Source: a virus
Taxonomy: Duplodnaviria; Caudoviricetes
Length of the DNA stretch: 58,296 bases
IMG/VR virus record: IMGVR_UViG_3300042889_002114
Coordinates: 1-58,296 of that record
Direction: 5' to 3' (one strand)
Shown here: piece by piece, positions 45,809-58,296 of the stretch
Layout of the letters: each line of letters starts with the position of its first letter
Numbering within the stretch: position 1 is the first letter of the stretch
Notes under the pieces: generated by a model
Told to the model about the DNA's origin: nothing
The model's input: only the letters and a program-made list of their open reading frames with translations
Database searches by the model: none
Position numbers and translations under genes: made by a program

Positions 45809-45837
45809 TTGACAGTGTTTTAGAAGTATGCTAAAAT
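45809..45837 (+). promoter_or_regulatory. near-consensus sigma70 promoter for the tRNA array
   Basis: TTGACA-17nt-TAAAAT. Confidence 0.75.
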
Positions 45838-46098
45838 AGAATTCCGAAGGACTTAGGTCCCAAGGAGCAGTTGCTGGACTTAAACCAGCAGTGGTAAACG
45901 CGGAACGAGACTGCGGGATAGCCACTCAAAATAAACCCGAATGGGCGGTGCCGAGGATGAAACCCAGGTGATGGGGAGTAAAAATAGGTGGATGTATTGA
46001 ATCCACCGTGGGCAGTGAGAGGGAAACCTCTCGCAAGCGGATCCGTCTAAAGTGCTAGACAACATATTCCGCTTATCAATAAAAAAGGCCAAAGTTTT

Positions 46099-46176
46099 CA
46101 GCGTGTAGGGGAGTCTGGAGTCCCTGCCACCTCGGGAAGGTGGAGATCGCAGGTTCAAATCCTGCTACGCTGACCA
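46099..46176 (+). tRNA. tRNA-Pro(GGG)
   Basis: CCACC-TCGGGAA-GGTGG (C33); CCA. Confidence 0.88.
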
Positions 46177-46222
46177 AGATTTATATCCAGGCTGAGCGGC
46201 ACTCATAAGTCCTGGACGATAT

Positions 46223-46297
46223 GCTTCTGTAGCACAATGGCTAGTGCAACGAGCTGATAACTCGTAGATTCAGGTTCGATTCCTGGCAGAAGTACCA
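46223..46297 (+). tRNA. tRNA-Ile(GAT)
   Basis: ACGAG-CTGATAA-CTCGT; CCA. Confidence 0.93.
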
Positions 46298-46306
46298 ACA
46301 CAATAT

Positions 46307-46391
46307 GCGGTTGTGATGAAACTGGTAGACTTGCTGCACTCAGAATGCAGTGCCTTCGGGCGTGGTGGTTCGAATCCACTCAGCCGCACCA
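46307..46391 (+). tRNA. tRNA-Leu(CAG)
   Basis: CTGCA-CTCAGAA-TGCAG; variable arm; CCA. Confidence 0.93.
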
Positions 46392-46395
46392 ACAC

Positions 46396-46469
46396 GTGAT
46401 CATAGTTCAATTTCAGAGAACGCCGGCCCTGGGCTGGAAGTGCGGGGGAAGATCCCGCTGATTGCACCA
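46396..46469 (+). ncRNA. tRNA-like RNA with a truncated anticodon loop
   Basis: Acceptor GTGATCA/TGATTGC, ACCA end, 3-5 nt anticodon loop, atypical T loop. Confidence 0.6.
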
Positions 46470-46479
46470 ACTCTTTCAT

Positions 46480-46556
46480 TCCCATTGGTCCCTGTCGGTA
46501 GGGGAGCGACACTGTTAATGTCGATGTTGTAGGTTCGAGTCCTACATTGGGAGCCA
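46480..46556 (+). tRNA. tRNA-Asn(GTT)
   Basis: CGACA-CTGTTAA-TGTCG; GCCA. Confidence 0.9.
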
Positions 46557-46571
46557 ACATTCACCTTTTAT

Positions 46572-46647
46572 TCCTGTTTAGTCATCTTGGTGAGGGCGTC
46601 CGGCTGTTAACCGGAATAGGCTGGTTCGAACCCAGCAACAGGAGCCA
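46572..46647 (+). tRNA. tRNA-Asn(GTT)
   Basis: TCCGG-CTGTTAA-CCGGA; GCCA. Confidence 0.92.
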
Positions 46648-46654
46648 ACATTTA

Positions 46655-46690
46655 TGCGCGGTCGACAGGAGGTGGTTCCTGCCAGGTCTC
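46655..46690 (+). pseudogene. 5' half remnant of a tRNA (Met-like) ending in the anticodon loop
   Basis: TGCGCGG...GGTGGT...CAGGT-CTC followed by CGCTAAATA. Confidence 0.65.
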
Positions 46691-46704
46691 CGCTAAATAC
46701 TGGT

Positions 46705-47259
46705 ATGCGATATACCATTTACAAAATCACGAATTTGCTCAACGGTAAGTTCTATATCGGGAAGCACCAAACCTCTAATCCACTTGATGGATATTTTGGT
46801 TCGGGGCGGGCACTGAAGAGTGCCATCAAGCTTCACGGTAAAGAGAACTTCACCAAAGAGATACTCTTCGAGTTTGACTCAGAAGAGGAAATGAATGCCA
46901 AGGAGCGCGATCTCATTACCCTAGAGTTGGTTAATGATCCAGCATCCTATAACATGGCAGTTGGTGGTGAAGGTGGTCCTCACTTCAAAGGGCGACAACA
47001 TTCATCGGAAACCAAAGAACGAATTAGCCAGAGCTTAACAGGAAAGCAAGCCGCCTCGGTGTCCGAAGAGACCCGAGCAAAGCTTTCGGAGAAGAGCAAG
47101 GGTAACAAAAGTAAAACTGGTCAACAGACCTCGGAAGAGGTTAAGGCTAAGATAGCCAAGTCAATGACCGGTAAGAAACACAGTGAAGAAACCAAACAGA
47201 AGCTGCGAGAAGCTCGTTTGAGAACACTGGACAAGTCGCGGGTAGGACAAGACAGTTAG
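46705..47259 (+). CDS. GIY-YIG homing endonuclease (Seg-like, NUMOD3 repeats)
   Basis: TIYKITN..NGKFYIG...YFGSG...YN...GG; HS.ETK repeats; probable start at 46705. Confidence 0.9.
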   Translation: MRYTIYKITNLLNGKFYIGKHQTSNPLDGYFGSGRALKSAIKLHGKENFTKEILFEFDSEEEMNAKERDLITLELVNDPASYNMAVGGEGGPHFKGRQHSSETKERISQSLTGKQAASVSEETRAKLSEKSKGNKSKTGQQTSEEVKAKIAKSMTGKKHSEETKQKLREARLRTLDKSRVGQDS

Positions 47260-47314
47260 TCGCCAGCCTCATAAGCTGGATATCTGGTAGTTGCGAGCAC
47301 TACACCCGCTCCCA
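47237..47314 (+). tRNA. tRNA-Met(CAT), overlapping the endonuclease stop
   Basis: CCAGC-CTCATAA-GCTGG; 1:72 mismatch; atypical T loop; CCA. Confidence 0.82.
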
Positions 47315-47344
47315 TTCCAAGCTGGAGATGACAACCAGCTTTAT

Positions 47345-47419
47345 ACCACTGTACGCATCTGGTGAGGCGACTCCCCTGTCACGGGAATGAGGCGGGTTCG
47401 ATTCCCGTCAGTGGTGCCA
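47345..47419 (+). tRNA. tRNA-Asp(GTC)
   Basis: TCCC-CTGTCAC-GGGA; GCCA. Confidence 0.88.
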
Positions 47420-47427
47420 ACTTCTCT

Positions 47428-47504
47428 GCCCGTATCGTTCTTCTGGAGAGGTCACCTGCTCGACACGCAGGGTTAGGTGAGTTCGATTCTCACTGCGGGC
47501 ACCA
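47428..47504 (+). tRNA. tRNA-Val(GAC)
   Basis: CCTGC-TCGACAC-GCAGG (C33); ACCA. Confidence 0.85.
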
Positions 47505-47517
47505 ACAAGTCATTCAT

Positions 47518-47591
47518 GGCTCGCGCGATGGAGTCGCGGCTGATCCTTACAAGATCGGCGTCACAGGGTTCGATTCCCTGACGGGCTACCA
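47518..47591 (+). tRNA. tRNA-Val(TAC)
   Basis: TGATC-CTTACAA-GATCG; ACCA. Confidence 0.85.
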
Positions 47592-47597
47592 AATACT

Positions 47598-47672
47598 GGA
47601 CTGGGGTCCCCATGGTGGGGAAGCACACTCTTAATGTGCCCGTCGAGGGTTCGATCCCCTCCTAGTCCTCCA
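47598..47672 (+). tRNA. tRNA-Lys(CTT)
   Basis: GCACA-CTCTTAA-TGTGC; CCA. Confidence 0.87.
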
Positions 47673-47679
47673 ACATCAC

Positions 47680-47756
47680 GGACCTGTAGCACAATTGGTA
47701 GTTGCGGGGGCCTCTTAAGCCCTAGGTTGTCGGTTCGACCCCGACCAGGTTCACCA
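47680..47756 (+). tRNA. tRNA-Lys(CTT)
   Basis: GGGGC-CTCTTAA-GCCCT; ACCA. Confidence 0.9.
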
Positions 47757-47782
47757 AAGACCTAGCTCTGCTAGGCACTAAC

Positions 47783-47865
47783 GGGAAGGTAAAGCCGATG
47801 GTTTCGGCAGGCAGTCTGTAAAACTGCTCTTTCGGGGAGTGGATCGTAACCGCACCTTCCCACCA
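47783..47865 (+). tRNA. tRNA-Tyr(GTA)
   Basis: GCAGT-CTGTAAA-ACTGC; variable arm; ATCGTAA T loop. Confidence 0.85.
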
Positions 47866-47869
47866 ATAT

Positions 47870-47952
47870 GCACCAGTAACCGAGAGTCATATGGGTATGG
47901 CGGGAGGCTTTTAATCTCCTGGTAGGGGGATCGTAACCTCACTGGTGTGCCA
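47870..47952 (+). tRNA. tRNA-Lys(TTT), atypical D and T arms
   Basis: GGAGG-CTTTTAA-TCTCC; GCCA. Confidence 0.75.
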
Positions 47953-47964
47953 ATAAAATCAAAT

Positions 47965-48035
47965 GGCTAGGGTACTGGGTACGCGAGACTCTCATAAGGT
48001 CTTGTTGCCGGGATCGTAACCCGGACTAGCCTCCA
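47965..48035 (+). tRNA. tRNA with CAT anticodon (Met or Ile2)
   Basis: AGACT-CTCATAA-GGTCT; short D arm; CCA. Confidence 0.75.
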
Positions 48036-48039
48036 ACAT

Positions 48040-48116
48040 GCCCGCGTGACGTAACTGGTAAACGTGTCACGCTTAGACCGTGAATTCTGGAGGTTCGAAT
48101 CCTCTCGCGGGCACCA
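48040..48116 (+). tRNA. tRNA-Leu(TAG), short variable arm
   Basis: TCACG-CTTAGAC-CGTGA; ACCA. Confidence 0.88.
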
Positions 48117-48123
48117 AAGCTGA

Positions 48124-48156
48124 TGGAGATTAGTGTAGCTGGTAACATACCGCACT
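48124..48156 (+). pseudogene. 5' half remnant of tRNA-Gln ending at U33
   Basis: TGGAGATTAGTGTAGCTGGTAACATACCGCACT; closely resembles the 5' half of the tRNA at 48773. Confidence 0.85.
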
Positions 48157-48165
48157 AAATACAGT

Positions 48166-48768
48166 ATGATCATACAGCTCAAAAACAAATCATTGGTCCT
48201 TGAAGACCTGCAGAAATACTATGATGAAGGTCATAGTGTTGCGGCAACTGCCAAAGAGTTTGGTATTTCAAGTAGAACATTGATGAGGTTAAAAGCTAGT
48301 CACGGGTTTGTAACCAGGGACAAGTCAGCTGCATTGGTAGTATCCAATGCAAAGTATCCTAGAACCTTCAGCGAAGCTCAACGTGGTGTGCTTAGAACTC
48401 ACATGGAACGTCGGCTTGCTAATGGAACATATCCAACTCTTGGTAGGTCAAATCGGAAGATCGGGAAGCCATCATATCCGGAGACCTTCTTCAAGGAAGT
48501 GATCGAAAACGAGTTTACAGACAAACGCTACGAGGCGGAACATCCATTTGGATCCTTCTCCTTAGATTTTGCCTGGTTGCACTTGAAGAAGTGCATTGAG
48601 ATTGACGGTGAACAACATTTTGCTTCGCAAGAAGCGATTGATCGTGACTGTCGAAAAGATGCTTTCCTCGCCACAAACGGCTGGAAAGTATTTAGAATAC
48701 GGTGGAAGGATTTCTACAAAGATCCAAAGCCGCTCATCCTTCTTGTGAAGCAATTCATAGAAGAATGA
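48166..48768 (+). CDS. DUF559/Vsr-like putative homing endonuclease
   Basis: SYPE...FSLDFA...IEIDGEQH...D..KD.FL...GWKVFRI; N-terminal HTH-like module. Confidence 0.85.
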   Translation: MIIQLKNKSLVLEDLQKYYDEGHSVAATAKEFGISSRTLMRLKASHGFVTRDKSAALVVSNAKYPRTFSEAQRGVLRTHMERRLANGTYPTLGRSNRKIGKPSYPETFFKEVIENEFTDKRYEAEHPFGSFSLDFAWLHLKKCIEIDGEQHFASQEAIDRDCRKDAFLATNGWKVFRIRWKDFYKDPKPLILLVKQFIEE

Positions 48769-48772
48769 TTAT

Positions 48773-48847
48773 TGGAGATTGGTGTAAACGGTAACATCGA
48801 CGCCTCTGAAGCGTTTGTCCTAGGTTCGAACCCTAGATCTCCAGCCA
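48773..48847 (+). tRNA. tRNA-Gln(CTG)
   Basis: GACGC-CTCTGAA-GCGTT; U1:A72; GCCA. Confidence 0.93.
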
Positions 48848-48860
48848 ACTAGTCATTCAT

Positions 48861-48934
48861 TGGGGAATGGTGTAAAGGTAGCATAACTGACTTTGAATCA
48901 GTTGGATCACGTTCGATACGTGGTTCCCCAGCCA
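48861..48934 (+). tRNA. tRNA-Gln(TTG)
   Basis: ACTGA-CTTTGAA-TCAGT; GCCA. Confidence 0.92.
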
Positions 48935-49013
48935 ATAGGCCTTAGAGGATTTAGGGGATTAGGCACCCCACACCGGGATCACGAAAGTGACCGCATCTAC
49001 GGTTCCTCACTAT

Positions 49014-49085
49014 GCTGTTGTGGGGTGGCTCTCACGCTTGGTTGTGTCCCAGGTGGTTTCGGTTCGACTCCGAACAACAGTACCA
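49014..49085 (+). tRNA. tRNA-His(GTG), no G-1, G1:U72, A73
   Basis: CTTGG-TTGTGTC-CCAGG; short D arm; ACCA. Confidence 0.75.
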
Positions 49086-49092
49086 ATATCAT

Positions 49093-49125
49093 GCGTCTAT
49101 AGCTCAATGGTAGAGCCACTGCCTT
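49093..49125 (+). pseudogene. 5' half remnant of tRNA-Gly
   Basis: GCGTCTATAGCTCAATGGTAGAGCCACTGCCTT. Confidence 0.85.
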
Positions 49126-49142
49126 GGTCAACTAAATAGAGT

Positions 49143-49712
49143 ATGATCAAGAAGATATTTAATTGGCCCGAGATCCAAGCTTTTTACGATACTGGTAACA
49201 GTAGCGGAAAAACTGCCAAGCAATTTGGAATGTCAGGTAAAACTTTGTTCCTCGCGGCAAAACGTGGTGATTTTGTTACTCGATCCAGAAGTGAGGCGGC
49301 GACGGTTGGTTCAACAACCCGTCCACCTCATTCTCAGGTCACCAAAGACAAGTTGAGTAAGATTGCTTCCGACAGAGAATTTGGTGGCAAGAACTACCGT
49401 AAAACTTTCCCCTACAAGGGCGTTGTGTTGGAGAGCTCATACGAGCTTGCACTTGCACAAGAACTTGATGGTGAGGGTATTGCTTGGGTGCGTCCCAAGC
49501 GTTTCTACTGGACTGATGACACTGGTAGGCGTAGACACTACACACCAGACTTCTTCCTTCCAGACTACGGGATTTATCTAGATCCCAAAAACGACTACCT
49601 GATCAAGATAGATAGTGATAAGATCAACCGAGTGATGTTACAAAATGACATACGGGTGTTGGTGTTGTCTAAGAGTCAACTGTCCTGGTCATACATTGCA
49701 TCTGTAGTATAG
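49143..49712 (+). CDS. free-standing PD-(D/E)XK (TnsA_N-like) putative homing endonuclease
   Basis: ESSYE...WVRP...YTPDFFLP...YLDPKN; paralogue of the ORF at 44466. Confidence 0.82.
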   Translation: MIKKIFNWPEIQAFYDTGNSSGKTAKQFGMSGKTLFLAAKRGDFVTRSRSEAATVGSTTRPPHSQVTKDKLSKIASDREFGGKNYRKTFPYKGVVLESSYELALAQELDGEGIAWVRPKRFYWTDDTGRRRHYTPDFFLPDYGIYLDPKNDYLIKIDSDKINRVMLQNDIRVLVLSKSQLSWSYIASVV

Positions 49713-49772
49713 TGGCTATTATGTTTGGCTTCCAACCAGAAGATGTGGGTTCGATTCCCACCAGATGCTCCA
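49698..49772 (+). tRNA. tRNA-Gly(TCC), overlapping the endonuclease stop
   Basis: TTTGG-CTTCCAA-CCAGA; TCCA. Confidence 0.92.
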
Positions 49773-49812
49773 AGGAATGGCTAGCAGGGTTCGATCCTCT
49801 CTAGACGCTCCA
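49773..49812 (+). pseudogene. 3' half remnant of tRNA-Gly
   Basis: T loop GGTTCGATCC; TAGACGC-TCCA complementary to GCGTCTA at 49093. Confidence 0.85.
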
Positions 49813-49819
49813 ACTTTAT

Positions 49820-49895
49820 CCTGGCAAAGTCTTTGCGGTGGAGGCGCTGGTTTGTGGAGCCGGATGGCTAGGTTCGAATCCTAGTGCCAGGACCA
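49820..49895 (+). tRNA. tRNA-His(GTG), A73
   Basis: CTGGT-TTGTGGA-GCCGG; ACCA. Confidence 0.85.
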
Positions 49896-49902
49896 AGTTT
49901 AT

Positions 49903-49976
49903 GCGAATATAGCTCAAGGGTAGAGCAGAGCGTTGCCAACGCTCCGATAGGGGTTCGAATCCCCTTATTCGCTCCA
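49903..49976 (+). tRNA. tRNA-Gly(GCC)
   Basis: GAGCG-TTGCCAA-CGCTC; TCCA. Confidence 0.93.
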
Positions 49977-49983
49977 ACACAAT

Positions 49984-50059
49984 GCGGCATTAGTATATTG
50001 GTTGATTGCATCACCTTGCCATGGTGAGAAGATGGGTTCGATTCCCATATGCCGCTCCA
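49984..50059 (+). tRNA. tRNA-Gly(GCC)
   Basis: TCACC-TTGCCAT-GGTGA; TCCA. Confidence 0.9.
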
Positions 50060-50221
50060 AAGACGTTGTACGAAGCAGGGCTGCAAACCCTGAGCGAGAG
50101 GCCTTTAATGCGCGGGACAGTCTATCCCGAGAACTGTGAACAGCTTCACGGCGGGGGCCAAGAACCCCTAGTAGCATAGGAGAGGCGGAGTGGGGTGTGG
50201 ATACCCATTGCAAAGGAATAT

Positions 50222-50297
50222 GTGTAGTTGGTGAAGCTGGAGCTCACATTGGCTTGAAACCCCAAAGAACTAGGTTCGATCCCTAGACTACACACCA
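50222..50297 (+). tRNA. tRNA-Phe(GAA)
   Basis: TTGGC-TTGAAAC-CCCAA (one mismatch); ACCA. Confidence 0.82.
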
Positions 50298-50506
50298 AGT
50301 TCTCCTAGGAGGACGGAGCCTACTTACGCCCTAGGCTCGTAAAATATGGAGACGTTCTGCACTGTGGAGCGTTGGGACCTCGCAGCGCCGGGCGGCCAGT
50401 TCGTAAGGAACAAGTAGCTCATTACCTGGAAGGGGCAGGTTACCGATTATAATGGTTGCGCGTTTCTAGTTGGCAACATAGAGTGCTTTTTTAACAGGAG
50501 CACCAC

Positions 50507-50827
50507 ATGAACCAGCAACAAGGTTTTCTCGCGCACGCCGACGGCACGATTGCCGGACTGAAGTCCCAGCAAGTTGCGATCGAATATCGCAAGACGATCT
50601 GCCCCAAGGACCAAGTCGAGATCCTCGACCTGGACGTGGCGCGCCTGCAACGCGAGATTGACCGGCTGGTCATCATCCGCACTGACGTTGAGTCCAAGCT
50701 GAGCAAGGAAGAGATCGCCCAGTATGAAGCGTCGCGGGTCAAGCCCAAGACGGAACTCGAGAAGCGCGCCGAGATTGAAGAAATGAATCGGCGCATGAAC
50801 GAGAACAAGGACCGGCCGGGGATCTAA
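50507..50827 (+). CDS. hypothetical coiled-coil protein inside the tRNA array
   Basis: AGGAG RBS; 106 aa. Confidence 0.7.
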   Translation: MNQQQGFLAHADGTIAGLKSQQVAIEYRKTICPKDQVEILDLDVARLQREIDRLVIIRTDVESKLSKEEIAQYEASRVKPKTELEKRAEIEEMNRRMNENKDRPGI

Positions 50828-50839
50828 TCCCCTGCCTAT

Positions 50840-50962
50840 GTGAAGGTAGTGTGAGGACGTGCTAGGATGCAGGGGACCGGAAAACTCTGCAGGGGATCAC
50901 GGACGGGATAACACAACGGGGAGGACCCGGAGATGTTGGTTCAAATCCAACCCTTTACACCA
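50840..50962 (+). ncRNA. tRNA-scaffolded GGA-rich RNA
   Basis: Acceptor GTGAAGG/CCTTTAC (G3:U70), canonical T arm and ACCA, enclosing ~85 nt with ten GGA triplets. Confidence 0.7.
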
Positions 50963-50969
50963 ACTACAT

Positions 50970-51071
50970 CGAGAGGTAGTTTAAGGACGCGACGGGGTCG
51001 ACACCAAGCGGACTGGTAAAATGGGCGTGTGAGAACGTCAGATGTAGGCTCGAAACCTTCCCTCTCGGCCA
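50970..51071 (+). ncRNA. tRNA-like RNA with an expanded D loop
   Basis: Acceptor CGAGAGG/CCTCTCG-GCCA; ~25-nt D-loop insert; 6-nt anticodon loop. Confidence 0.6.
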
Positions 51072-51072
51072 T

Positions 51073-51148
51073 GTACCTGTAGCTCAGTTGGTAGAGCAAC
51101 GCACTGAAAATGCGTGTGTCGGTGGTTCGAGTCCACCTAGGTGCACCA
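51073..51148 (+). tRNA. tRNA-Phe(GAA)
   Basis: ACGCA-CTGAAAA-TGCGT; ACCA. Confidence 0.94.
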
Positions 51149-51271
51149 ATACCAAAATCCACCCTTTGAGGTGGCACCCAGGGTGGGTGGTTAACGTGAA
51201 GCGGGGTTCGATGCCCTAAACGATCGGGTTCGACTCCCCTTCGTGCTTGGCTGCAATATCGTTAATGAAAC

Positions 51272-51347
51272 GGGGTATGCTCTGGGTTAAGCGGATTAGT
51301 TTTGCAAACTGATTGTCTGAAGGGTTCGATTCCCTTATATTCCACCA
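51272..51347 (+). tRNA. tRNA-Ala(TGC)
   Basis: G3:U70; TTAGT-TTTGCAA-ACTGA; atypical D arm. Confidence 0.8.
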
Positions 51348-51410
51348 ACGAGCCGAAGACAATGGGTTATCTTTTGCTGATAAACACCCACCGTCATTTA
51401 CTTGCTCGTT
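51347..51410 (+). ncRNA. minimal Y RNA (Ro60-binding stem only)
   Basis: AACGAGC-CGA...GGGTTAT...ACTT-GCTCGTT. Confidence 0.7.
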
Positions 51411-51415
51411 ACCAT

Positions 51416-51490
51416 GGCGCATTAGTTCACTGGCTAGAATACCGCTCTTTCACAGCGGGGAAACGAGATCGATACTCGTATGCGTCACCA
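51416..51490 (+). tRNA. tRNA-Glu(TTC)
   Basis: CCGCT-CTTTCAC-AGCGG; ACCA. Confidence 0.9.
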
Positions 51491-51494
51491 ACAT

Positions 51495-51568
51495 GCTTCT
51501 GCCGGCGGATTCCGGCATTTGGACTTCTAATCCGAAATGCGAGGGTTCGACTCCTTCCAGAAGCGCCA
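51495..51568 (+). tRNA. tRNA-Arg(TCT)
   Basis: TTGGA-CTTCTAA-TCCGA; GCCA. Confidence 0.87.
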
Positions 51569-51606
51569 AGCATTTCATATGCCTCTGATGATGGATTTCA
51601 TACCCC

Positions 51607-51679
51607 GACCTTGCCAACGGATTTTGGCCCCGACGCTTCGAACGTCAGGTATCGAGTTCGACTCTCGACAGGGTCTCCA
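51607..51679 (+). tRNA. tRNA-Arg(TCG)
   Basis: GACG-CTTCGAA-CGTC; TCCA. Confidence 0.82.
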
Positions 51680-51687
51680 ACCATATT

Positions 51688-51759
51688 GTCTCCGCTAGTG
51701 GATCTAGTCTGTTCCCTGCGAAGGAAGAGAAGCCTGTTCGACTCAGGCCGGAGACGCCA
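51688..51759 (+). tRNA. tRNA-Arg(GCG)
   Basis: TTCC-CTGCGAA-GGAA; GCCA. Confidence 0.8.
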
Positions 51760-51766
51760 ATTAAAT

Positions 51767-51840
51767 ACCCGCGCCGAGGGATTGCGGCACAGGCCCTGCG
51801 AAGGCTTGATGTTCAGGTTCGACTCCTGACGTGGGTGCCA
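51767..51840 (+). tRNA. tRNA-Arg(GCG), overlapping the antisense endonuclease stop
   Basis: AGGCC-CTGCGAA-GGCTT; GCCA. Confidence 0.85.
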
Positions 51841-52448
51841 ACTGCATCAAAGATTTCTTGAGGAGTACCGTAGATTAGGTCAACTGATCCTACGAGTGCA
51901 TCAAGTTTCTCTTGTTGTTTTTCAACTACGATCCTGTTCTTAGGATCAAGGTAGAGATTGAATTCTGGTAGATAGAAATCTGCAAAGTATTTGTGTGGTT
52001 TGCCTTTTTGGTCATACCAAACGATTGCATCAGTGGGTCGAAGCCAACTTATGGAATGCTCATTGAGCCACTTAGCAACAATGACTTCCCATCCTGAATC
52101 AAACATCTCTCCCTCGTATTCTTGTTTCTTGACACCTGATGCGTTCTTACGCTTTGACGAAATAAAGCATTGGTCAGAACATAGAAGACCATACCATCCA
52201 CTGTCAGTTCGTTGACTCCAGAATTGATTAGAGCAAAACGAACAGTTGGATCGTTTTATTTTGGTGTGTTGATACTTGGTGGGTTGTTTCCGAATAAAGG
52301 ATCTACCCTTCAAAGATTCAGAAGTTTTTGATTTGCTACTAATGGTTCTAGGTGCTCTGTTTGTATTATTGAATACAGCGGCGCATGAACAAGAACAGAA
52401 TTTGTTCTTGTTGGGAATTGGTTTGGCACAAGTGATACAGTATTTCAT
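51813..52448 (-). CDS. PD-(D/E)XK putative homing endonuclease with N-terminal zinc-finger motifs
   Basis: CxxC...FCS..C twice; DSGWE...WLRP...YFADFYLP...YLDPKN; TAAATA on the minus strand before ATG. Confidence 0.82.
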   Translation of the reverse strand: MKYCITCAKPIPNKNKFCSCSCAAVFNNTNRAPRTISSKSKTSESLKGRSFIRKQPTKYQHTKIKRSNCSFCSNQFWSQRTDSGWYGLLCSDQCFISSKRKNASGVKKQEYEGEMFDSGWEVIVAKWLNEHSISWLRPTDAIVWYDQKGKPHKYFADFYLPEFNLYLDPKNRIVVEKQQEKLDALVGSVDLIYGTPQEIFDAVGTHVRSRT

Positions 52449-52458
52449 GTTGTATTTA

Positions 52459-52498
52459 GCGAAACCGAAAATCTAGGTTCGATCCCTAGTGGAACCGC
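52459..52498 (+). pseudogene. 3' half remnant of tRNA-Arg(GCG) starting at the anticodon
   Basis: GCG-AA-ACCGA-AAAT-CTAGGTTCGATCCCTAG-TGGAAC. Confidence 0.8.
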
Positions 52499-52748
52499 TT
52501 AATCGGAGACACCCACAGGCCCTAGGGCTCGTGACGTGAGCTTGGCGCTAGAGGGCTTACCGCGTGTAGCGGATGAGTCCGGAGTGGGAGTGTGGAAACC
52601 CACCGATTGAAGATACTCCTTGTAAATGACCCTTCCTAGTCCGGTTGCAAACGGACGACGTGGGAGGCAGTTTAGATGAGCGGACTTGCGGCGTTTGGAG
52701 CCGAGGTAGTCTAGGAGCCGGGTGAGGAAACCGGCCTTGGAGCATAAT

Positions 52749-52823
52749 GGGCTGTTAGTGATAACGGTAGCACGGGACAATGGCATTGTCTTAGCAGGGG
52801 TTCGATTCCCCTACAGTCCACCA
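52749..52823 (+). tRNA. tRNA-Ala(GGC)
   Basis: G3:U70; GGACA-ATGGCAT-TGTCT; ACCA. Confidence 0.92.
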
Positions 52824-52836
52824 ACTGATATTCTTT

Positions 52837-52910
52837 GGCCCATTAGTTTAATGGTAGAATACCGCCCTCTCACGGCGTCAGCAGGGGTTCGATTCCCCTA
52901 TGGGTCACCA
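52837..52910 (+). tRNA. tRNA-Glu(CTC)
   Basis: CGCC-CTCTCAC-GGCG; ACCA. Confidence 0.9.
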
Positions 52911-53020
52911 ACTACTACCTCACGGAGGTGGTGCTTTAGAGACGCTCCCGCTTTGTTTGGAGCCAGGGAAACCTGTGGCGGTCTCGGAGGGGAATGTGGA
53001 CCTCCCCAGTAGTTGAATAT

Positions 53021-53096
53021 GGCGCATTAGTTTATAGGGTGAAAATACTGGGCTTTCAATCCGGAGTGGTGGGTTCGATCCCCACATGCGTCGCCA
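53021..53096 (+). tRNA. tRNA-Glu(TTC)
   Basis: CTGGG-CTTTCAA-TCCGG; GCCA. Confidence 0.9.
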
Positions 53097-53189
53097 AACT
53101 TGTTGACACTCTGGAGACAGGGTGTTACATTGATTCTACCAACTAGTCCCTCCCTGTAGCTGTTTCTAGCAACAGAAGGAGATAAGACG

Positions 53190-53450
53190 ATGAAGGTATA
53201 TGTGGTTCTGCACAATAACTGGCAACACTACGAAGGTGGTGGAGCGGAGATTGTTTCGATTCATGCTTCCACGAACTGAGCGTTGGCGGAAGTCAAAGCT
53301 CAGTTCGTGGAACTGAATAAAAATCGCTACTCGTATCAACCCGAGTATGTGATGGTGGATCGTGAAAACGAGTCCGATTGTTGGTACTACCAGGAAACTG
53401 GTGGGGCTGACTATTGGTACTCCATCGAGGAACACAAGATTGAGGACTAG
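53190..53450 (+). pseudogene. small phage protein gene with an in-frame TGA at codon 30
   Basis: TTGACA promoter, AAGGAG RBS; MKVYVV...IVSIHASTN*ALAEVK...YSIEEHKIED. Confidence 0.65.
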
Positions 53451-53653
53451 GAAACTGGTCCTCCGATCTAATACTCTGGTATGCAGTAACCAAAGCATAC
53501 TCCCGCCACACGGGAAACGTGGCCCTGCATGACTCCGGCAATCGGTAGTGGAGGAATTTCATCCCCTTGATGCAAAGGGGGTCGGCACGGGTATGATGGC
53601 ACTCTACGTTAGTGAGCCCATTAGTCGGGTGGGGATGGTACCCCACCCGCTTT

Positions 53654-53731
53654 TCCTAGCTAGTCATCTTGGTGATGGCGCTCCGCTGTTAACGGAGATT
53701 GAGCTCAGTTCGAATCTGAGGCTAGGAGCCA
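53654..53731 (+). tRNA. tRNA-Asn(GTT)
   Basis: CTCCG-CTGTTAA-CGGAG; GCCA. Confidence 0.92.
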
Positions 53732-53773
53732 ATAATATAGACGCCATCGAAGCAGTAATGCTTTACTCTGGAA

Positions 53774-54196
53774 ATGAACTTTCGAGGCGTCAAGGATTCA
53801 ACCTTTGTTTGTGGGTTTTGTGAGAAGTCTTTCTCTTGGAGAGGCTACTCCACCTCCCACAAGTTTTGTTCTACAGACTGTGCTCACTCTAACAGGGTGA
53901 AGATGACTAGAGAACGAGACGACGCGCTCTTCGATACTGGCCAGTTAACAAGTCGGCCATCAATCTACCAAATACTTGTTACCCGTCGTGGTAACAAGTG
54001 TGAGAGTTGTAATATTCAAGACTGGATGGGCAAAGCAATCCGATTTTGGGTCGACCACATTGATGGGTGTGCAACCAATAATGATCCATCAAACTTGAGA
54101 TTGGTCTGTCCCAACTGTGATAGTCAATCTGCCACATTCGGTGGTAAAAATAGAGGTAGTGGCCGTAAGTCCCTAGGGCTTGCGCCATACAGTTAA
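53774..54196 (+). CDS. HNH homing endonuclease
   Basis: CxxC..., CESC...VDHIDG...NN...NLRLVCPNC. Confidence 0.85.
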   Translation: MNFRGVKDSTFVCGFCEKSFSWRGYSTSHKFCSTDCAHSNRVKMTRERDDALFDTGQLTSRPSIYQILVTRRGNKCESCNIQDWMGKAIRFWVDHIDGCATNNDPSNLRLVCPNCDSQSATFGGKNRGSGRKSLGLAPYS

Positions 54197-54201
54197 ACAA
54201 T

Positions 54202-54277
54202 CCCCTCGGACCCAGCTGGTGACGGGAGCCGCTTGTCAGGCGGATGCGGGCGAGTTCAATTCTCGTCGAGGGGGCCA
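54202..54277 (+). tRNA. tRNA-Asp(GTC)
   Basis: CCGC-TTGTCAG-GCGG; GCCA. Confidence 0.87.
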
Positions 54278-54403
54278 ACTTAGAGCCGATTGATTCGGGT
54301 TATCTTTCTGTGAAAAAGCGATGGAGGGTTCGATTCCCTTGCCGGGGCTCACGCCTTGGTCCTTGGATGGCTGGCAACGTCCGGTTCTCCACTTGCTCTA
54401 AGT
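54278..54403 (+). ncRNA. Y RNA (YrlA-like) with a permuted tRNA-like domain
   Basis: ACTTAGAGC-CGA..GGGTTAT..T arm GAGGGTTCGATTCCCTT..CCACTT-GCTCTAAGT. Confidence 0.78.
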
Positions 54404-54407
54404 CTTT

Positions 54408-54488
54408 AGTTCTGTAGCTCAGTGGCCAGAGCATTCCTGTGTATCGCTACGCTGGGAAGGGCCAGAGGTTCGAATCCTCTCAGAACTG
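54408..54488 (+). ncRNA. tRNA-like RNA with an elongated anticodon arm
   Basis: Canonical acceptor, D and T arms; anticodon arm TTCCTGTGTA-TCGC-TACGCTGGGAA; no CCA. Confidence 0.7.
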
Positions 54489-54490
54489 CT

Positions 54491-54635
54491 AAACGGGCCG
54501 ATTTGTAAGGGTTATTGCATATGAAGCCGATGGCGGGAGTTCGATTCTCCCACCCCCGACCAACACGTTAGACCTCCGGGGGTTAGTTTAATGGTAGAAC
54601 AGCGAAAAACGTCCTTGCTACCACTTGCCCGTTTT
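54491..54635 (+). ncRNA. Y RNA (YrlA-like) with a permuted tRNA-like domain
   Basis: AAACGGGC-CGA..GGGTTAT..T arm, loop-closed acceptor ACCCCCG/CGGGGGT, D arm, then CCACTT-GCCCGTTT. Confidence 0.85.
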
Positions 54636-54638
54636 ATT

Positions 54639-54728
54639 GGATAGTAGACCAGGTGGGACCTGGCGGCGCCTGGAAAGCGTCTGGAGCCCTTTACCGGGCT
54701 TGTGGATCGAGACCACTGCTGTCCGCCA
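54639..54728 (+). tRNA. tRNA-Ser(GGA)
   Basis: GGCGC-CTGGAAA-GCGTC; long variable arm; GCCA. Confidence 0.88.
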
Positions 54729-54734
54729 ACTCAT

Positions 54735-54825
54735 GGAGAGTTAAGCAGAGCGGCCTCTGCACCTGCCTCGAAAACAGTGTGTGCCCGTAGAACGGCATGG
54801 GAATCGACATCTCAGCTCTCCGCCA
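54735..54825 (+). tRNA. tRNA-Ser(CGA)
   Basis: CTCGAAA loop with an imperfect stem; long variable arm; GCCA. Confidence 0.78.
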
Positions 54826-54831
54826 ATAAAT

Positions 54832-54936
54832 GGGCCAGAACCCTGTGGACTTAGATCCACTTACCGTGAAAGTCGGTGGAGGTATGGAGACGGGAGTAGC
54901 TCTCCCATGCGGGTTCAAATCCCCACTGGTCCACTA
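54832..54936 (+). ncRNA. atypical tRNA-like RNA
   Basis: Acceptor GGGCCAG/CTGGTCC, T loop TTCAAAT, three internal hairpins, no standard anticodon loop. Confidence 0.55.
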
Positions 54937-54942
54937 AACCTT

Positions 54943-55029
54943 GGATGGTTAAACGGGGAGGTCCCCGTACCTGTTTGCTAAACAGTGGGTGCCGAAAGGC
55001 ATGGGTTTCGAGTACTCAGCCATCCGCCA
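54943..55029 (+). tRNA. tRNA-Ser(GCT)
   Basis: CTGT-TTGCTAA-ACAG; long variable arm; GCCA. Confidence 0.85.
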
Positions 55030-55139
55030 ACGTACGAGCCGACCGAGAACGAAACCATCGTCCGGAACCTCGGTCTAATCCCGGTCAACCCTAGCAAGCT
55101 ACTAGGGCGAAGGGGGTGCTCGTACGCCCAATACATCAT

Positions 55140-55213
55140 CAGGGTGTAAGATAGTGGTAGTCGCGAACCCTCGGACGGTGCGAGTGCTGGTTCGATTCCA
55201 GCTACCCTGACCA
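55140..55213 (+). tRNA. tRNA-Pro(CGG)
   Basis: CTCGGAC loop; C1:G72; ACCA. Confidence 0.85.
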
Positions 55214-55240
55214 CTGACTAAGTATCGAACTAAATAGAGT

Positions 55241-55897
55241 ATGTTCTACTTGGTCTATAAAATCACCAACACGGTGAATGGTAAAATCTACATCGGCGCC
55301 CATAAGACTGCTGATGTAAATGACAACTATATGGGATCTGGTTCCATCTTGAAGATGGCCCAAGAGAAATATGGCACGTCAAACTTCACCAAAGAGATTC
55401 TGTTTGTCTTCAGCTCACCAGAAGAGATGTTCCTTATGGAAGCTCAACTGGTCAATGAAGACTTTGTATCTAGAGCAGATACCTACAACCTAAAAGAGGG
55501 TGGTACCGGTGGCTTTGGCTTCATTCACCAACACAATCTACACCTTAATGGGGTTCCCAACTTCACAAAGGACAATGCCAAGGCGTTAAGCATCAAAGGT
55601 AACGGGAGGAAGGAAATCCTCCATGCTACTGATCCAGAGTGGAGGCAGAGATACTTGGACAGAATGTCCAAGTCCATGCGCGGCCATCAAGGTTTCCTGG
55701 GTAAGACCCATAGTGCTGAGACACTAGAAAAGATGCGGCAGGCTAAAACTGCTCATGGTTTAGGAAAGAACAATTCGCAATTCGGCTCCTTCTGGATCTA
55801 TAATGAGACTACTGGAGAATCCTGTAAAACCAAGGGTGATATCCCGGAAGGTTGGATTCGTGGTCGAAAGATAGGAACCCGAAGAAATGATCTTTGA
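55241..55897 (+). CDS. GIY-YIG homing endonuclease (Seg-like)
   Basis: LVYKITNTVNGKIYIG...YMGSG...YNLKEGG; NUMOD3-like GKTHSAET. Confidence 0.9.
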   Translation: MFYLVYKITNTVNGKIYIGAHKTADVNDNYMGSGSILKMAQEKYGTSNFTKEILFVFSSPEEMFLMEAQLVNEDFVSRADTYNLKEGGTGGFGFIHQHNLHLNGVPNFTKDNAKALSIKGNGRKEILHATDPEWRQRYLDRMSKSMRGHQGFLGKTHSAETLEKMRQAKTAHGLGKNNSQFGSFWIYNETTGESCKTKGDIPEGWIRGRKIGTRRNDL

Positions 55898-56147
55898 AAA
55901 AGTTGAAGTCACAGAACATCAGTTTAGCACAATCAAAAATGACTATGATTTGAAAATCATGTTCAGAAGTGGTGGATGGCCATCAGATGATGAACAATAT
56001 CTTGGCATGATTGAGCTCAGACTAGATTGTGGCAATAGCCTACTCACCGATTCAGTCAATGACTGCCTTAGATTGACTAAAGAAGATGCCATCCTTCAAC
56101 TTCGAAGGGCAGCTGATTTTCTAGAATCAGAACTAAACGGGGAGTGA
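55887..56147 (+). CDS. hypothetical protein
   Basis: 86-aa ORF overlapping the endonuclease stop. Confidence 0.55.
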   Translation: MIFEKVEVTEHQFSTIKNDYDLKIMFRSGGWPSDDEQYLGMIELRLDCGNSLLTDSVNDCLRLTKEDAILQLRRAADFLESELNGE

Positions 56148-56157
56148 TCCCCACAAT

Positions 56158-56232
56158 GGGCCCTTAGTGGTAATGGTAAAACGACGCTTTCGCACGGCGT
56201 AGATAAGGGTTCGATTCCCTTAGGGTCCACCA
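56158..56232 (+). tRNA. tRNA-Ala(CGC)
   Basis: G3:U70; ACGCT-TTCGCAC-GGCGT; ACCA. Confidence 0.9.
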
Positions 56233-56282
56233 ATATAATCAGCTCATCGGGGTAGGATCAGCTGGGTAAGACAACCTATCAT

Positions 56283-56357
56283 CAGGGTAGGATCGGCAAG
56301 TGAAGAGGTCACGCTTGGAACGTGGCAGGCCAGGAGCGTTACCTGGTACCCTGACCA
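56283..56357 (+). tRNA. tRNA-Pro(TGG), atypical T loop
   Basis: TCACG-CTTGGAA-CGTGG; ACCA. Confidence 0.8.
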
Positions 56358-56596
56358 ACATATTGACTAGTAGTTCTGTTCACTATAAGATGTGTTTAGT
56401 TCTCGGACTTAAACCGAGTGGCGAGGATGAGAAATCATTCCCGACGTTCTTGGACGTAAACCAAGTGGTGGAGCGCCTTGAATCTTGGTTCACGGCTCCA
56501 GTCCTGGCAGGGGACTTTAACTCTGCCCACAATACGGCGGGATCAAGGCGGCAGTCTCATGGGGTGACCCTGTAGCAACGGCCTCCCGTGCGTTAT

Positions 56597-56671
56597 AGGG
56601 GTGTAGTAAAGTGGCCTATACACCGGTCTCCAAAACCGAGCATGGGGGTTCGATTCCCTCCACCCTTGCCA
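56597..56671 (+). tRNA. tRNA-Trp(CCA)
   Basis: CGGT-CTCCAAA-ACCG; GCCA. Confidence 0.9.
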
Positions 56672-56789
56672 AATAGATCTTACGAAGGCCTGGGGTGTGG
56701 TTGAAAGATGGGCCCCTTGGACTCGAGACTTCGTGAGTAAAGGTGTAGCTGCCCTCGACACAACTAAAGGCGCACCAATAATTTCCCAT

Positions 56790-56880
56790 AGGGGTGGGAC
56801 TGGCGATCGGATTCCAAACCCGATGACGTTTAACCTAAGCCAGTGGTAGTCTACGGGTTCAATTCCTGCCACCCTTGCCA
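56790..56880 (+). tRNA. atypical tRNA-Trp(CCA): no D hairpin, ~29-nt variable region
   Basis: Same acceptor stem as the tRNA at 56597; TTCCAAA loop; GCCA. Confidence 0.65.
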
Positions 56881-56887
56881 ACTCAAT

Positions 56888-56921
56888 GGTCCTATAGCTT
56901 AATGGCAGAGCCCTCCGCTTG
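56888..56921 (+). pseudogene. 5' half remnant of a tRNA (Ile-like) ending at G34
   Basis: GGTCCTATAGCTTAATGGCAGAGCCCTCCGCTTG followed by CTAAATA. Confidence 0.82.
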
Positions 56922-56932
56922 CTAAATACGGC

Positions 56933-57574
56933 ATGAACCGTAAACGTAAATATGACTACCAACAGATCCAAGAACTGTATGACAGTGGTTTTTCAATTAA
57001 GATTACCTGTAAAATTTCAGGTATGTCACCGGCTAGATTCAATGCTCTTGTAAAGCAAGGATTTCTTGTTACTAGGACACAATCAGAAGCCGCTATACTT
57101 ACTGGAGGATCAGGCTTTTGTTCTCCTGATTATGTGGGTTCTGAGAAACATAGACAGTCCTCGGCAAAGGGTGGTGGATATAAAGAGCGAGCGGGACGTT
57201 CCAAGGGTGCATTCCGTATAGACGGCTATGGTGTCAAAACCTGGCTACAATCAAGCTATGAGACGCAACTAGCAGATATCATGACGCAAAATGATATTCT
57301 ATGGTGTCGCCCCAAAGCACTCTCCTATAATGATGGAGATCGGGATAGGAAATACTATCCTGATTTCTTCCTTCCAGACTATGATTTGTATCTGGATACG
57401 AAGAACGACTACTTGGCTAAAGTGGACGCGGGTAAGATTGAACTGGTTCGAAACCAACATGGTATTCAACTGTTCATCATCACGCAGAAGCAAATCACAC
57501 TGGAGTATCTCCAGTCATTATGGTCTCATCGTACAATGGCTCAGTACGCTCGGCTGATAACCGGGAAATCGTAG
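56933..57574 (+). CDS. free-standing PD-(D/E)XK (TnsA_N-like) putative homing endonuclease
   Basis: QSSYE...WCRP...YYPDFFLP...YLDTKN; N-terminal HTH-like module. Confidence 0.82.
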   Translation: MNRKRKYDYQQIQELYDSGFSIKITCKISGMSPARFNALVKQGFLVTRTQSEAAILTGGSGFCSPDYVGSEKHRQSSAKGGGYKERAGRSKGAFRIDGYGVKTWLQSSYETQLADIMTQNDILWCRPKALSYNDGDRDRKYYPDFFLPDYDLYLDTKNDYLAKVDAGKIELVRNQHGIQLFIITQKQITLEYLQSLWSHRTMAQYARLITGKS

Positions 57575-57598
57575 GTTCAATTCCTCGTGGGACTACCA
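57522..57598 (+). tRNA. tRNA-Ile(GAT), largely inside the 3' end of the endonuclease ORF
   Basis: CTCGG-CTGATAA-CCGGG; ACCA. Confidence 0.88.
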
Positions 57599-57687
57599 AG
57601 CAGACGCGGTGTCTGTTTGTTACGATCTTGAATCTCTAGGATGTGTGGGCTCATTACCCACCAGGATCTCTAACTAAGGTGAACGCT

Positions 57688-57966
57688 ATGGTTGGTAGGA
57701 TTGAAACCTACATCCACAGTGACAACATCACGCCCAACAAGGGTGGTGTGTTGATCTATGTGAAATGTGATACAGACTTCGCGGCTAGAACCCCGGAGTT
57801 CATCGAGTTCTCTGAGATGGCTGCAAAGCGCGTCTATGGTGCGGATGCACTCTCTTGGGAAGACACCATCGCGGTGTTTCCCGATATGGAGGAGCGCCGT
57901 ATAGAACTCCAGAAGAAGATTCGGGAGACGGTTGCCGTTGAGGCGATTCAGATCTTGAAGCTTTGA
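57688..57966 (+). CDS. minimal EF-Ts-like protein (core subdomain only)
   Basis: GRIETYIH...GVLIYVKCDTDFAARTPEF matches the EF-Ts TDFV motif; ends KIRE.V.V. Confidence 0.75.
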   Translation: MVGRIETYIHSDNITPNKGGVLIYVKCDTDFAARTPEFIEFSEMAAKRVYGADALSWEDTIAVFPDMEERRIELQKKIRETVAVEAIQILKL

Positions 57967-58013
57967 TCTTGACTGTGGCCCTGAGACTAAATATCTTGGG
58001 GCCACGGTCTCAT

Positions 58014-58096
58014 GCCCTTGTGGTGGAATTGGTAGACGCGCTGCACTCAAAACGCAGTTCTTCGGAGTGTCGGTTCGAGTCCGACCAGGGGCACCA
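58014..58096 (+). tRNA. tRNA-Leu(CAA)
   Basis: CTCAAAA loop; variable arm; ACCA. Confidence 0.92.
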
Positions 58097-58106
58097 ATCC
58101 AACGAC

Positions 58107-58180
58107 GCTCCAGTCGTATAGTGGTATTACGCCGCCTTCGTAACGCGGATACAGGGGTTCAATTCCTCTTTGGAGCACCA
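58107..58180 (+). tRNA. tRNA-Thr(CGT)
   Basis: TTCGTAA loop; C2:G71; ACCA. Confidence 0.88.
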
Positions 58181-58184
58181 ATAC

Positions 58185-58261
58185 GCCCTTGTAGTCCAAC
58201 GGTAGAGGCAACCGGTTTAAGCCCGGTAAAGGTGATGGGTTCGAATCCCTCCAGGGGCACC
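58185..58261 (+). tRNA. tRNA-Leu(TAA), short variable arm
   Basis: ACCGG-TTTAAGC-CCGGT. Confidence 0.85.
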
Positions 58262-58296
58262 GATTGACAAAACTCAACCACCCAGCTAAGTAGGTC

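Follow-up and report, generated by a model that had tools for sequence, protein, structure and literature searches.

How does a nuclease gene come to lie, against the direction of its neighbours, between a whole transfer RNA (tRNA) gene and what looks like the second half of another one? The question is raised by positions 51767-52498 of IMG/VR record IMGVR_UViG_3300042889_002114, an uncultured freshwater phage (Duplodnaviria; Caudoviricetes) whose complete 58.3-kb record (58,296 nt, hereafter the window) was analysed. A tRNA array occupies the plus strand from about 45 kb to the end of the window. According to a PHROGs scan, eight nuclease-type open reading frames (ORFs) are scattered through this array, of which only the one at 51813-52448 lies on the minus strand. 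In our reading, this ORF is probably a free-standing homing-endonuclease gene from a PD-(D/E)XK lineage that inhabits the tRNA arrays of phages, and would move with a tRNA gene as one cassette. The locus is a mirror-oriented member of a recurrent nuclease-plus-tRNA cassette architecture, which is undescribed as far as we found: a search of the full-text literature, with subscription journals and supplements outside its coverage, returned no published description of tRNA halves or relics beside phage homing endonucleases.

The tRNA that starts at 51767, the stop and start of the ORF, the TAAATA at 52453-52458 and the GCGAA at 52459, all named in the initial annotation, were found where it had placed them. 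At one end, the stop codon of the ORF (TCA on the plus strand, 51813-51815) coincides with the first three T-stem bases of a plus-strand tRNA-Arg(GCG) at 51767-51840, and the 3' end of the ORF overlaps the T arm, acceptor strand and CCA of this tRNA in antisense over 28 bases (51813-51840). At the other end, the start codon (CAT on the plus strand, 52446-52448) is preceded at a distance of 4 nt by the minus-strand motif CTAAATA (52453-52459), which resembles a T4-type late promoter and reads TATTTA on the plus strand at 52453-52458. Directly abutting this motif is a displaced 3' tRNA half on the plus strand (52459-52497), which extends from the anticodon position to the discriminator base and consists of GCGAA, a T arm (CTAGG/TTCGATC/CCTAG), the acceptor strand TGGAACC and G73, and is not followed by CCA. 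The covariance-model alignment that had been proposed as a check for this segment bears out a tRNA 3' half: in a 62-base search of 52459-52520, the Rfam tRNA model aligned 52459-52497 with its columns 33-71 of 71 as a 5'-truncated match (20.5 bits, E 0.012), with GCG on the three anticodon columns and a perfect 5-bp T stem. It does not bear out an origin from tRNA-Arg, as described below.

The ORF encodes a free-standing nuclease of 211 amino acids with zinc-ribbon-like motifs at the N-terminus and a PD-(D/E)XK domain at the C-terminus (residues ~103-211). It matches a PHROG annotated as endonuclease (E 2.2e-11), and no GIY-YIG match was returned by the PHROG and Pfam scans. A profile of the 26-member family aligns over ~70 residues with chains of T7 endonuclease I, including the PDF...DxK core (E 1.9e-4). 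The corresponding Pfam family, PF05367 (Phage_endo_I), gave no match for the ORF at E<=1 and matched two of the four paralogs in the window, the best at E 0.014. The catalytic residues are intact, with E121, D157 and K170 invariant in the family alignment and D168 nearly so. In the AlphaFold2 model the C-terminal domain adopts a restriction-endonuclease-like fold, with predicted local distance difference test (pLDDT) values of 89-98 for the 10-residue blocks 111-210 and a whole-model mean of 74.5; a Foldseek search of the model against the PDB gave no match at E<=0.001. The N-terminus holds two CxxC...CxxxC motifs (Pfam treble clef, E 5.9e-5, below the cut-off), in place of which the three window paralogs have helix-turn-helix-like regions. 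Modularity of this sort would be expected of a homing enzyme that recognises specific sequences. T7 endonuclease I (PDB 1M0D, 1FZR, 3CAE, 2PFJ; Phage_endo_I) shares the catalytic core and the motif E...PDF...(D/E)xK, but it is a junction-resolving enzyme without sequence-specific DNA-binding domains, whereas the core is here fused to zinc-ribbon or helix-turn-helix modules and found in mobile cassettes.

A nuclease gene next to pieces of a tRNA might also be part of a group I intron that interrupts a tRNA gene; alternatively, the 3' half might belong to a split tRNA and be joined to its partner at the RNA level. Between 51841 and 52458, however, no group I intron or other Rfam family was matched at E<=1, the ORF runs antisense to the tRNAs, its other side holds a complete tRNA instead of a 5' exon, and the window contains no 5' half that is able to pair with the relic. 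On the Rfam result and the missing 5' partner we rejected this explanation, which we regard as extremely improbable. Judged from its sequence, the gene stands outside an intron and has its own putative expression signal in the CTAAATA 4 nt before its ATG. This separates it from I-Ssp6803I (PDB 2OST), the PD-(D/E)XK homing endonuclease of a tRNA-fMet group I intron, where the tRNA is regained by splicing; our locus has no intron, and a carried copy would replace the tRNA.

The tRNA-Arg(GCG) at the stop end of the nuclease, which had been described as intact, is the last of four tandem plus-strand Arg genes. The first is a tRNA-Arg(TCT) at 51495-51568 with the loop CTTCTAA, missed by ARAGORN and matched by Rfam at 51495-51565 (30.6 bits, gathering score 29). 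It is followed by a tRNA-Arg(TCG)-like gene at 51607-51679, which neither program reported and which was recognised by eye from its acceptor stem (GACCTTG/CAGGGTC), its loop CTTCGAA, its T arm and CCA. The third, a tRNA-Arg(GCG) at 51688-51759 with a non-canonical D arm, was called by ARAGORN, and its minimum-energy fold is a cloverleaf (-28.6 kcal/mol). The fourth, our tRNA-Arg(GCG) at 51767-51840, was called by ARAGORN as 51765-51840; its acceptor stem pairs in 7/7 positions only when started at 51767. It is predicted to fold into a cloverleaf with a 7-nt anticodon loop, U33, a purine at position 37, a T loop and an encoded CCA. All four genes have in common an unusual cloverleaf in which the D stem directly follows the acceptor stem and positions 8-9 are absent, as well as the T loop TTCGACT and the encoded CCA, and 17 of their 20 consensus pairs show compensatory change. 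ARAGORN misses two of the four and Rfam three, and in a 381-base search the Rfam tRNA model (RF00005) matched neither tRNA-Arg(GCG) within 51688-51840 even at E<=10. The ARAGORN call, the cloverleaf as minimum-energy fold and the compensatory pairs among the four paralogs indicate that the tRNA at 51767-51840 is structurally whole, if non-canonical, and does not represent random decay. The word intact thus fits its structure and does not extend to canonical form.

The putative late promoter of the nuclease gene belongs to a motif that is over-represented in the window, where CTAAATA occurs 12 times against 3.22 expected, a count reached in none of 100 shuffles. It stands 4-5 nt before the ATG in six of the eight nuclease genes (46705, 48166, 49143, 52448(-), 55241 and 56933), where 46705 is an internal ATG at the start of the GIY-YIG domain. 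A seventh gene, at 44466, has ATAAATA at the same spacing, and the HNH gene has no such motif. The T4 late-promoter consensus is TATAAATA. A variant metagenome contig of 706 nt (run X2, depth ~4) carries an insertion of ATAA behind 52457 together with 52449 G>T and 52450 T>A, by which the minus-strand sequence CTAAATA-CAAC-ATG becomes TATAAATA-CATA-ATG and the spacing is kept. In the available text of a report on the T4-like phage Aeh1, CTAAATA is the predicted late promoter and starts at -12 (PMC1524935). With the same geometry, the spacing of 4 nt would place the mRNA start at or next to the AUG, so that the transcript would be leaderless or nearly so. PHROG scans of 35 window ORFs, beyond which no other search for it was made, revealed no gp55-type sigma factor. 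Minus-strand terminator-like hairpins, formed by the relic T arm and by the antisense tRNA, are a weak signal (3 sites against 1.3 expected). In front of the CTAAATA of the GIY-YIG gene with its ATG at 46705, the stretch 46655-46692 resembles a 5' tRNA half with the D arm CAGG/CCTG; it ends in CT-CCG, a possible Arg(CCG) anticodon, and no tRNA matching it is found at the stop end of that gene.

Tracts derived from tRNAs also border other nuclease genes in the window. Directly before the CTAAATA of three plus-strand nuclease ORFs (48166, 49143 and 56933) lie 5' tRNA halves that end at tRNA position ~33-35. The one before 48166 (48124-48154) is nearest to the tRNA-Gln(CTG) that follows the ORF, with 21/25 bases in common; the others are found at 49093-49131 and 56888-56921. 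The clearest insertion scar in the window is the locus of the nuclease at 49143-49712. Its 5' half begins with the acceptor strand GCGTCTA (49093-49099), the stop of the ORF is overlapped by a complete tRNA-Gly(TCC) (49698-49772), and behind this tRNA follows an orphan T arm with acceptor strand (49785-49812), in which TAGACGC (49802-49808) is succeeded by T-CCA. U73 is typical of Gly tRNAs. The two 7-mers are exact complements, and these complementary flanking halves argue that one resident, Gly-like tRNA was split by a unit of promoter, nuclease and complete tRNA-Gly. At the loci of 48166 and 56933, no second relic was found after the whole tRNA. Directly behind the tRNA-Ala(TGC) that follows the nuclease at 44466-45053, a T arm and an acceptor strand with U70, then A73, are present at 45154-45178; this piece is Ala-like.

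The same layout was found around related nucleases in other phages. With an alignment of the four window paralogs, 78 loci were recovered from IMG/VR, and almost every one lies in a tRNA array. The comparison covered 83 distinct nucleases. A tRNA end lies within -60 to +30 nt of the stop in 40 of the 83 (33 on the same strand, 7 antisense), and in the same range before the first ATG in only eight. Fifteen nucleases have a tRNA-like orphan stretch upstream, and for ten of these stretches the best match in a library of 533 tRNAs agrees in amino-acid identity with the tRNA at the stop end, where 0.95 would be expected. Most of the matched blocks end at tRNA position 33-38. At two loci, L051 and L053, the anticodon GAT is preserved in the relic, and the tRNA carried there is an Ile(GAT). 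Flanking halves with 7/7 acceptor pairs enclose a nuclease plus a tRNA in four cassettes, namely the window locus 49143, L062 (Ile), L034 (Ile-tat) and a mirror-oriented second cassette of L062; for the same-strand orientation these are 3 of the 20 places examined.

These pairing halves bear on a further explanation, in which the element carries only half a tRNA: promoter, nuclease and one half would insert into the anticodon loop, so that a chimeric working tRNA arises and the native half is displaced. The final layout of whole tRNA, nuclease and displaced half is what such a mechanism expects, and so is the lack of a second relic after the whole tRNA at 48166 and 56933. Between the 5' relic at 56888-56921 and the 3' acceptor strand of the whole tRNA-Ile, 7/7 pairs can moreover form if G-U is counted, and the available text of a study on fungal mitochondria provides a precedent in endonuclease ORFs with a replacement C-terminus of atp6 or cox2 (PMC3630166). 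However, the four cassettes that keep both halves around a complete tRNA are not predicted by it, and at the Arg locus the 5' strands of the acceptor and anticodon stems of the whole tRNA both fail to pair with the relic. We therefore consider a half-carrying element rather improbable and favour a cassette with a complete tRNA.

The initial annotation had further claimed that a relic at the promoter end and a whole tRNA at the stop end occur in both orientations and that this argues against chance. The window cassettes, the IMG/VR loci and the mirror cassette of L062 uphold this view. Among eight mirror-oriented places examined (seven called by ARAGORN, plus L005 by eye), a T-arm relic stands on the start side in three, which are the window locus, L062 and L005. 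The mirror cassette of L062 (1438-2427 on the tRNA strand of a 323-kb viral contig) consists of a 5' relic GCAGGGT, tRNA-Phe(GAA), an antisense nuclease, TATTTAG and a 3' relic ACCCTGC-A-CCA. Its two 7-mers are exactly complementary, and each is found once in the locus. The same contig also holds the same-strand Ile cassette with both relic halves.

Our nuclease groups with those of L001, L002, L003 and L005 (Shimodaira-Hasegawa-like approximate likelihood ratio test (SH-aLRT) 94). In L005 the T-arm relic on the start side is found within this same clade, and L001-L003 lie beside tRNA-Arg(ACG). A separate clade of 15 members (SH-aLRT 100) has a tRNA-Arg(TCT) beside ten of them. At four loci of this Arg(TCT) clade (L013, L022, L023 and L025), TATAAATA stands a few bases before tRNA-Arg(TCT) and the nuclease ORF begins 15-22 nt after the tRNA, so that the unit order is promoter, tRNA, nuclease. 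At L001, the sequence GGTTCGATT just before the ATG was considered as a T-loop relic and rejected, being more simply a ribosome-binding region; L003 has GAGG there. Right after the stop of the nuclease of L001, the closest relative of ours, at 3158-3178, the sequence CAGAGGC-G-CCA resembles the acceptor end CAGAGAT-A-CCA of the upstream tRNA-Arg(ACG). This piece may be a tiny stop-side relic, the reverse of a relic at the promoter end.

In favour of the cassette, nuclease lineage tracks tRNA identity. The identity of the neighbouring tRNA changes 19 times on a tree of 79 nucleases, compared with a mean of 31.4 and a minimum of 27 in 500 shuffles (48 labelled rows, 9 near-identical twins dropped), and the nucleases form clades by tRNA (Ile, Thr, Gly, Met and Arg); kinship among the loci inflates this statistic, which speaks for association and is not proof of specificity. 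A number of other observations also weigh against a homing cassette. The five misses among the 15 orphan stretches include all three window cassettes (49143, 51813 and 56933). The layout recurs in many phages and is not universal: in L001-L003, three of the five members of our nuclease's clade, tRNA-Arg(ACG) is placed at the promoter and the stop end lacks one, which makes an inversion next to a pre-existing tRNA possible. The array is packed with tRNAs (39 called by ARAGORN in the window) and tRNA-like pieces, so that some adjacency is to be expected. Neither an empty site nor a close relative of the locus turned up in phage, viral, metagenome or genome collections, whether by megablast of 44000-58296 against phages, by protein search with the nuclease against viral and metagenome contigs, or by searches with two neighbouring proteins or exact relic-derived patterns. 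Metagenome contigs from four other runs contained only the occupied form with identical junctions and no skipped form, and no joint in them spans the cassette. Other joints in metagenome contigs, with sides of 20-30 nt and linking distant tRNAs, were read as cross-matches to tRNAs of other organisms and set aside.

The relic itself adds to these points. When the anticodon is left out, the best Arg 3' half ranks 20th among 453 distinct halves, with a median Arg rank of 198.5, and the nearest look-alikes of the relic are Ile, Gln, Gly and Phe. None of the four Arg genes has a 5' strand that would pair with it, no 5' partner exists in the window, and no site there has both the acceptor and the anticodon-stem complements. 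Its T loop differs from that of the Arg series, and CCA is absent. The claim that relic and whole tRNA share the same anticodon could not be maintained for the Arg cassette, since the likeness of the relic to Arg genes ends with GCG, its pairing with their 5' strands fails, and its first base, G52459, is shared with CTAAATA, where it is the complement of the C. A TATTTAG-CG junction is also seen in L062, two bases further from the T stem, and CG-CTAAATA likewise precedes the GIY-YIG gene at 46705; the GCG of the relic may thus belong to the junction. It is not simply part of the motif, because the variant contig with TATAAATA still retains AGCGAA. That the relic was once an Arg(NCG) gene is conceivable, at somewhat less than even chances. 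A degenerate pattern of relic T loop and acceptor strand hit 47 places in bacterial genomes, of which one is a tRNA (Leu-caa), and gave no clue to identity. Given the lack of pairing and of Arg likeness, the Arg cassette is evidence neither of a recent simple insertion nor of an Arg target. It shows the end state only, with its 5' half gone and its target identity not recoverable from the sequence seen here, and the gain from it is modest: one more instance, in mirror orientation.

Several of these observations would also suit a locus whose parts are unrelated neighbours. The 3' half would then be debris of array decay or the leftover of a deletion or inversion, the nuclease would have landed or been inverted beside tRNA-Arg, and GCG would be a coincidence. 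The array abounds in orphan T arms and odd tRNA-like pieces, the relic shows no likeness to Arg 3' halves beyond GCG, G52459 is part of CTAAATA, and a single inversion of promoter and nuclease would turn the order tRNA-Arg, promoter, nuclease of L001-L003 into the layout of the window. What this explanation leaves unaccounted for is that the relic is broken at the anticodon loop and abuts the promoter, just as in other cassettes of the window and of other phages, and that the mirror cases L062 and L005 show the same layout. On balance we judge it unlikely and retain the homing cassette as our preferred reading.

The anatomy of the locus, the fold and catalytic residues of the nuclease, the recurrence in other phages and the pairing of split halves are seen in the data; from them we infer anticodon-loop cleavage, homing, the order of events and promoter activity, and posit the following course. 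The mobile unit would consist of a short late promoter and the nuclease gene, with a complete tRNA carried along where the ORF stops. For the Arg cassette, this carried tRNA would be the odd tRNA-Arg(GCG), and the nuclease would be inverted relative to the array. The target of the nuclease would be a resident tRNA gene of matching kind, cleaved within the anticodon-loop DNA, and repair of this double-strand break would copy the cassette in and leave the resident gene as two halves, whose function would be taken over by the carried tRNA. The half beside the carried tRNA would later be lost by recombination, since it repeats, in direct orientation, a part of the tRNA next to it. The half on the far side of the promoter would survive, because its loss by the same route would delete the nuclease gene as well, and 52459-52497 would represent such a surviving 3' half. 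With the carried tRNA at the stop end in either direction of the ORF, the relic is expected at the promoter end in both orientations.

Similarities to known systems are partial. SegB of phages T4 and T6 is likewise a free-standing nuclease gene inside a phage tRNA array. According to the available text of two reports, it cuts tRNA genes of phages that lack it and drives the co-inheritance, and even amplification, of neighbouring tRNA genes; it is a GIY-YIG enzyme that recognises a conserved T-loop motif in many tRNA genes with relaxed specificity, and adjoining tRNA halves are not mentioned in that text (PMC2330249, PMC13096335). The nucleases studied here, in contrast, are of the PD-(D/E)XK type, with breaks in the anticodon loop, lineages that track single tRNA identities, and flanking relic halves. 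Closest in logic are mitochondrial endonuclease ORFs of fungi that come with a replacement gene end. In the part of the source available to us, they are described for atp6 of Allomyces macrogynus and for atp6, atp9, cox2 and nad3 of Glomus; each element supplies a second copy of the part that it interrupts, the native one is left behind displaced, and the two have diverged (PMC3630166). An Allomyces-type layout is present at our locus, where the ORF lies between the whole tRNA at 51767-51840 and the displaced 3' half at 52459-52497. The fungal targets are protein genes of which only the C-terminal part is duplicated, in frame, in the cases given there (PMC3630166), whereas here the target would be a phage tRNA gene, a whole tRNA is carried in at least four cassettes, and both orientations occur. 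Integrases that use tRNA genes, with the 3' end restored from attP, similarly leave their insert flanked by a whole tRNA and, at the opposite end, by a partial 3' copy that has been displaced. Here, however, there is no integrase, the insert measures ~0.65 kb, the gene is broken at its anticodon loop, and the two copies of the duplicated portion have diverged instead of remaining identical.

The tRNA arrays of phages are commonly attributed to codon usage or to evasion of host defences that cleave tRNAs. The layout described here suggests that the content and order of the arrays owe much to selfish nucleases, through like-for-like swaps of tRNA genes that leave datable scars. It also provides a testable rule: a break within the anticodon loop, a carried tRNA where the ORF stops, and a relic next to the promoter. 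The nucleases may constitute a family of compact enzymes specific for single tRNA genes, and many 'pseudo-tRNA' calls in phage genomes would be explained by cassette relics. Tentatively, and with considerable doubt, we propose a distinct class of mobile elements, 'tRNA-carrying homing cassettes', whose nucleases would read the anticodon stem-loop DNA of one isoacceptor, cut it and replace the gene with a cleavage-resistant odd tRNA. If this is true, selfish nucleases would be the chief force by which tRNAs are turned over, duplicated and switched in anticodon in the arrays of large phages. Replacement tRNAs, for example the four Arg genes with their odd D arms, might then escape host anticodon nucleases, and the element could be of use as a counter-defence.

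The remaining nuclease genes and neighbouring features of the array are as follows. Besides our ORF at 51813-52448 (minus strand), the PD-(D/E)XK paralogs of this one family comprise 44466-45053, 49143-49712 and 56933-57574 (PHROGs). Two GIY-YIG genes at 46654-47259 and 55241-55897 match phrog_314 (E 4.8e-47 and 8.2e-44), the HNH gene lies at 53774-54196 (PHROGs), and the ORF at 48166-48768 matches phrog_559, annotated as 'HNH endonuclease' (E 1.2e-6). An additional HNH gene was found at 42399-42935. Orphan T arms and odd tRNA-like pieces are frequent in the array. To the right of the relic, up to a tRNA-Ala(GGC), extends a G+C-rich and hairpin-rich spacer (52499-52748, fold z-score -2.0), and a second inter-tRNA spacer of this kind lies at 52911-53020; neither has an Rfam match at E<=1. 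A tRNA-like piece of 67 nt at 51346-51412 has a 7-bp acceptor-like pairing (AACGAGC/GCTCGTT), then ACCA, and a loop CTGATAA; it lacks a normal T arm, and its only Rfam match is a weak one to an unrelated nematode small RNA family. Remote from the main array, ARAGORN reported a tRNA without assigned type and with a four-base anticodon (ggaa) at 17062-17139. Elsewhere in the window, PHROG matches include a translation initiation factor (2255-2788), an Hsp20 (17200-17691), an RNA-repair-type polynucleotide kinase (35370-35849) and a tail-fibre-like protein of 3381 amino acids (6344-16489). As predicted from sequence, this gene content points to a large phage with an investment in translation and RNA repair.

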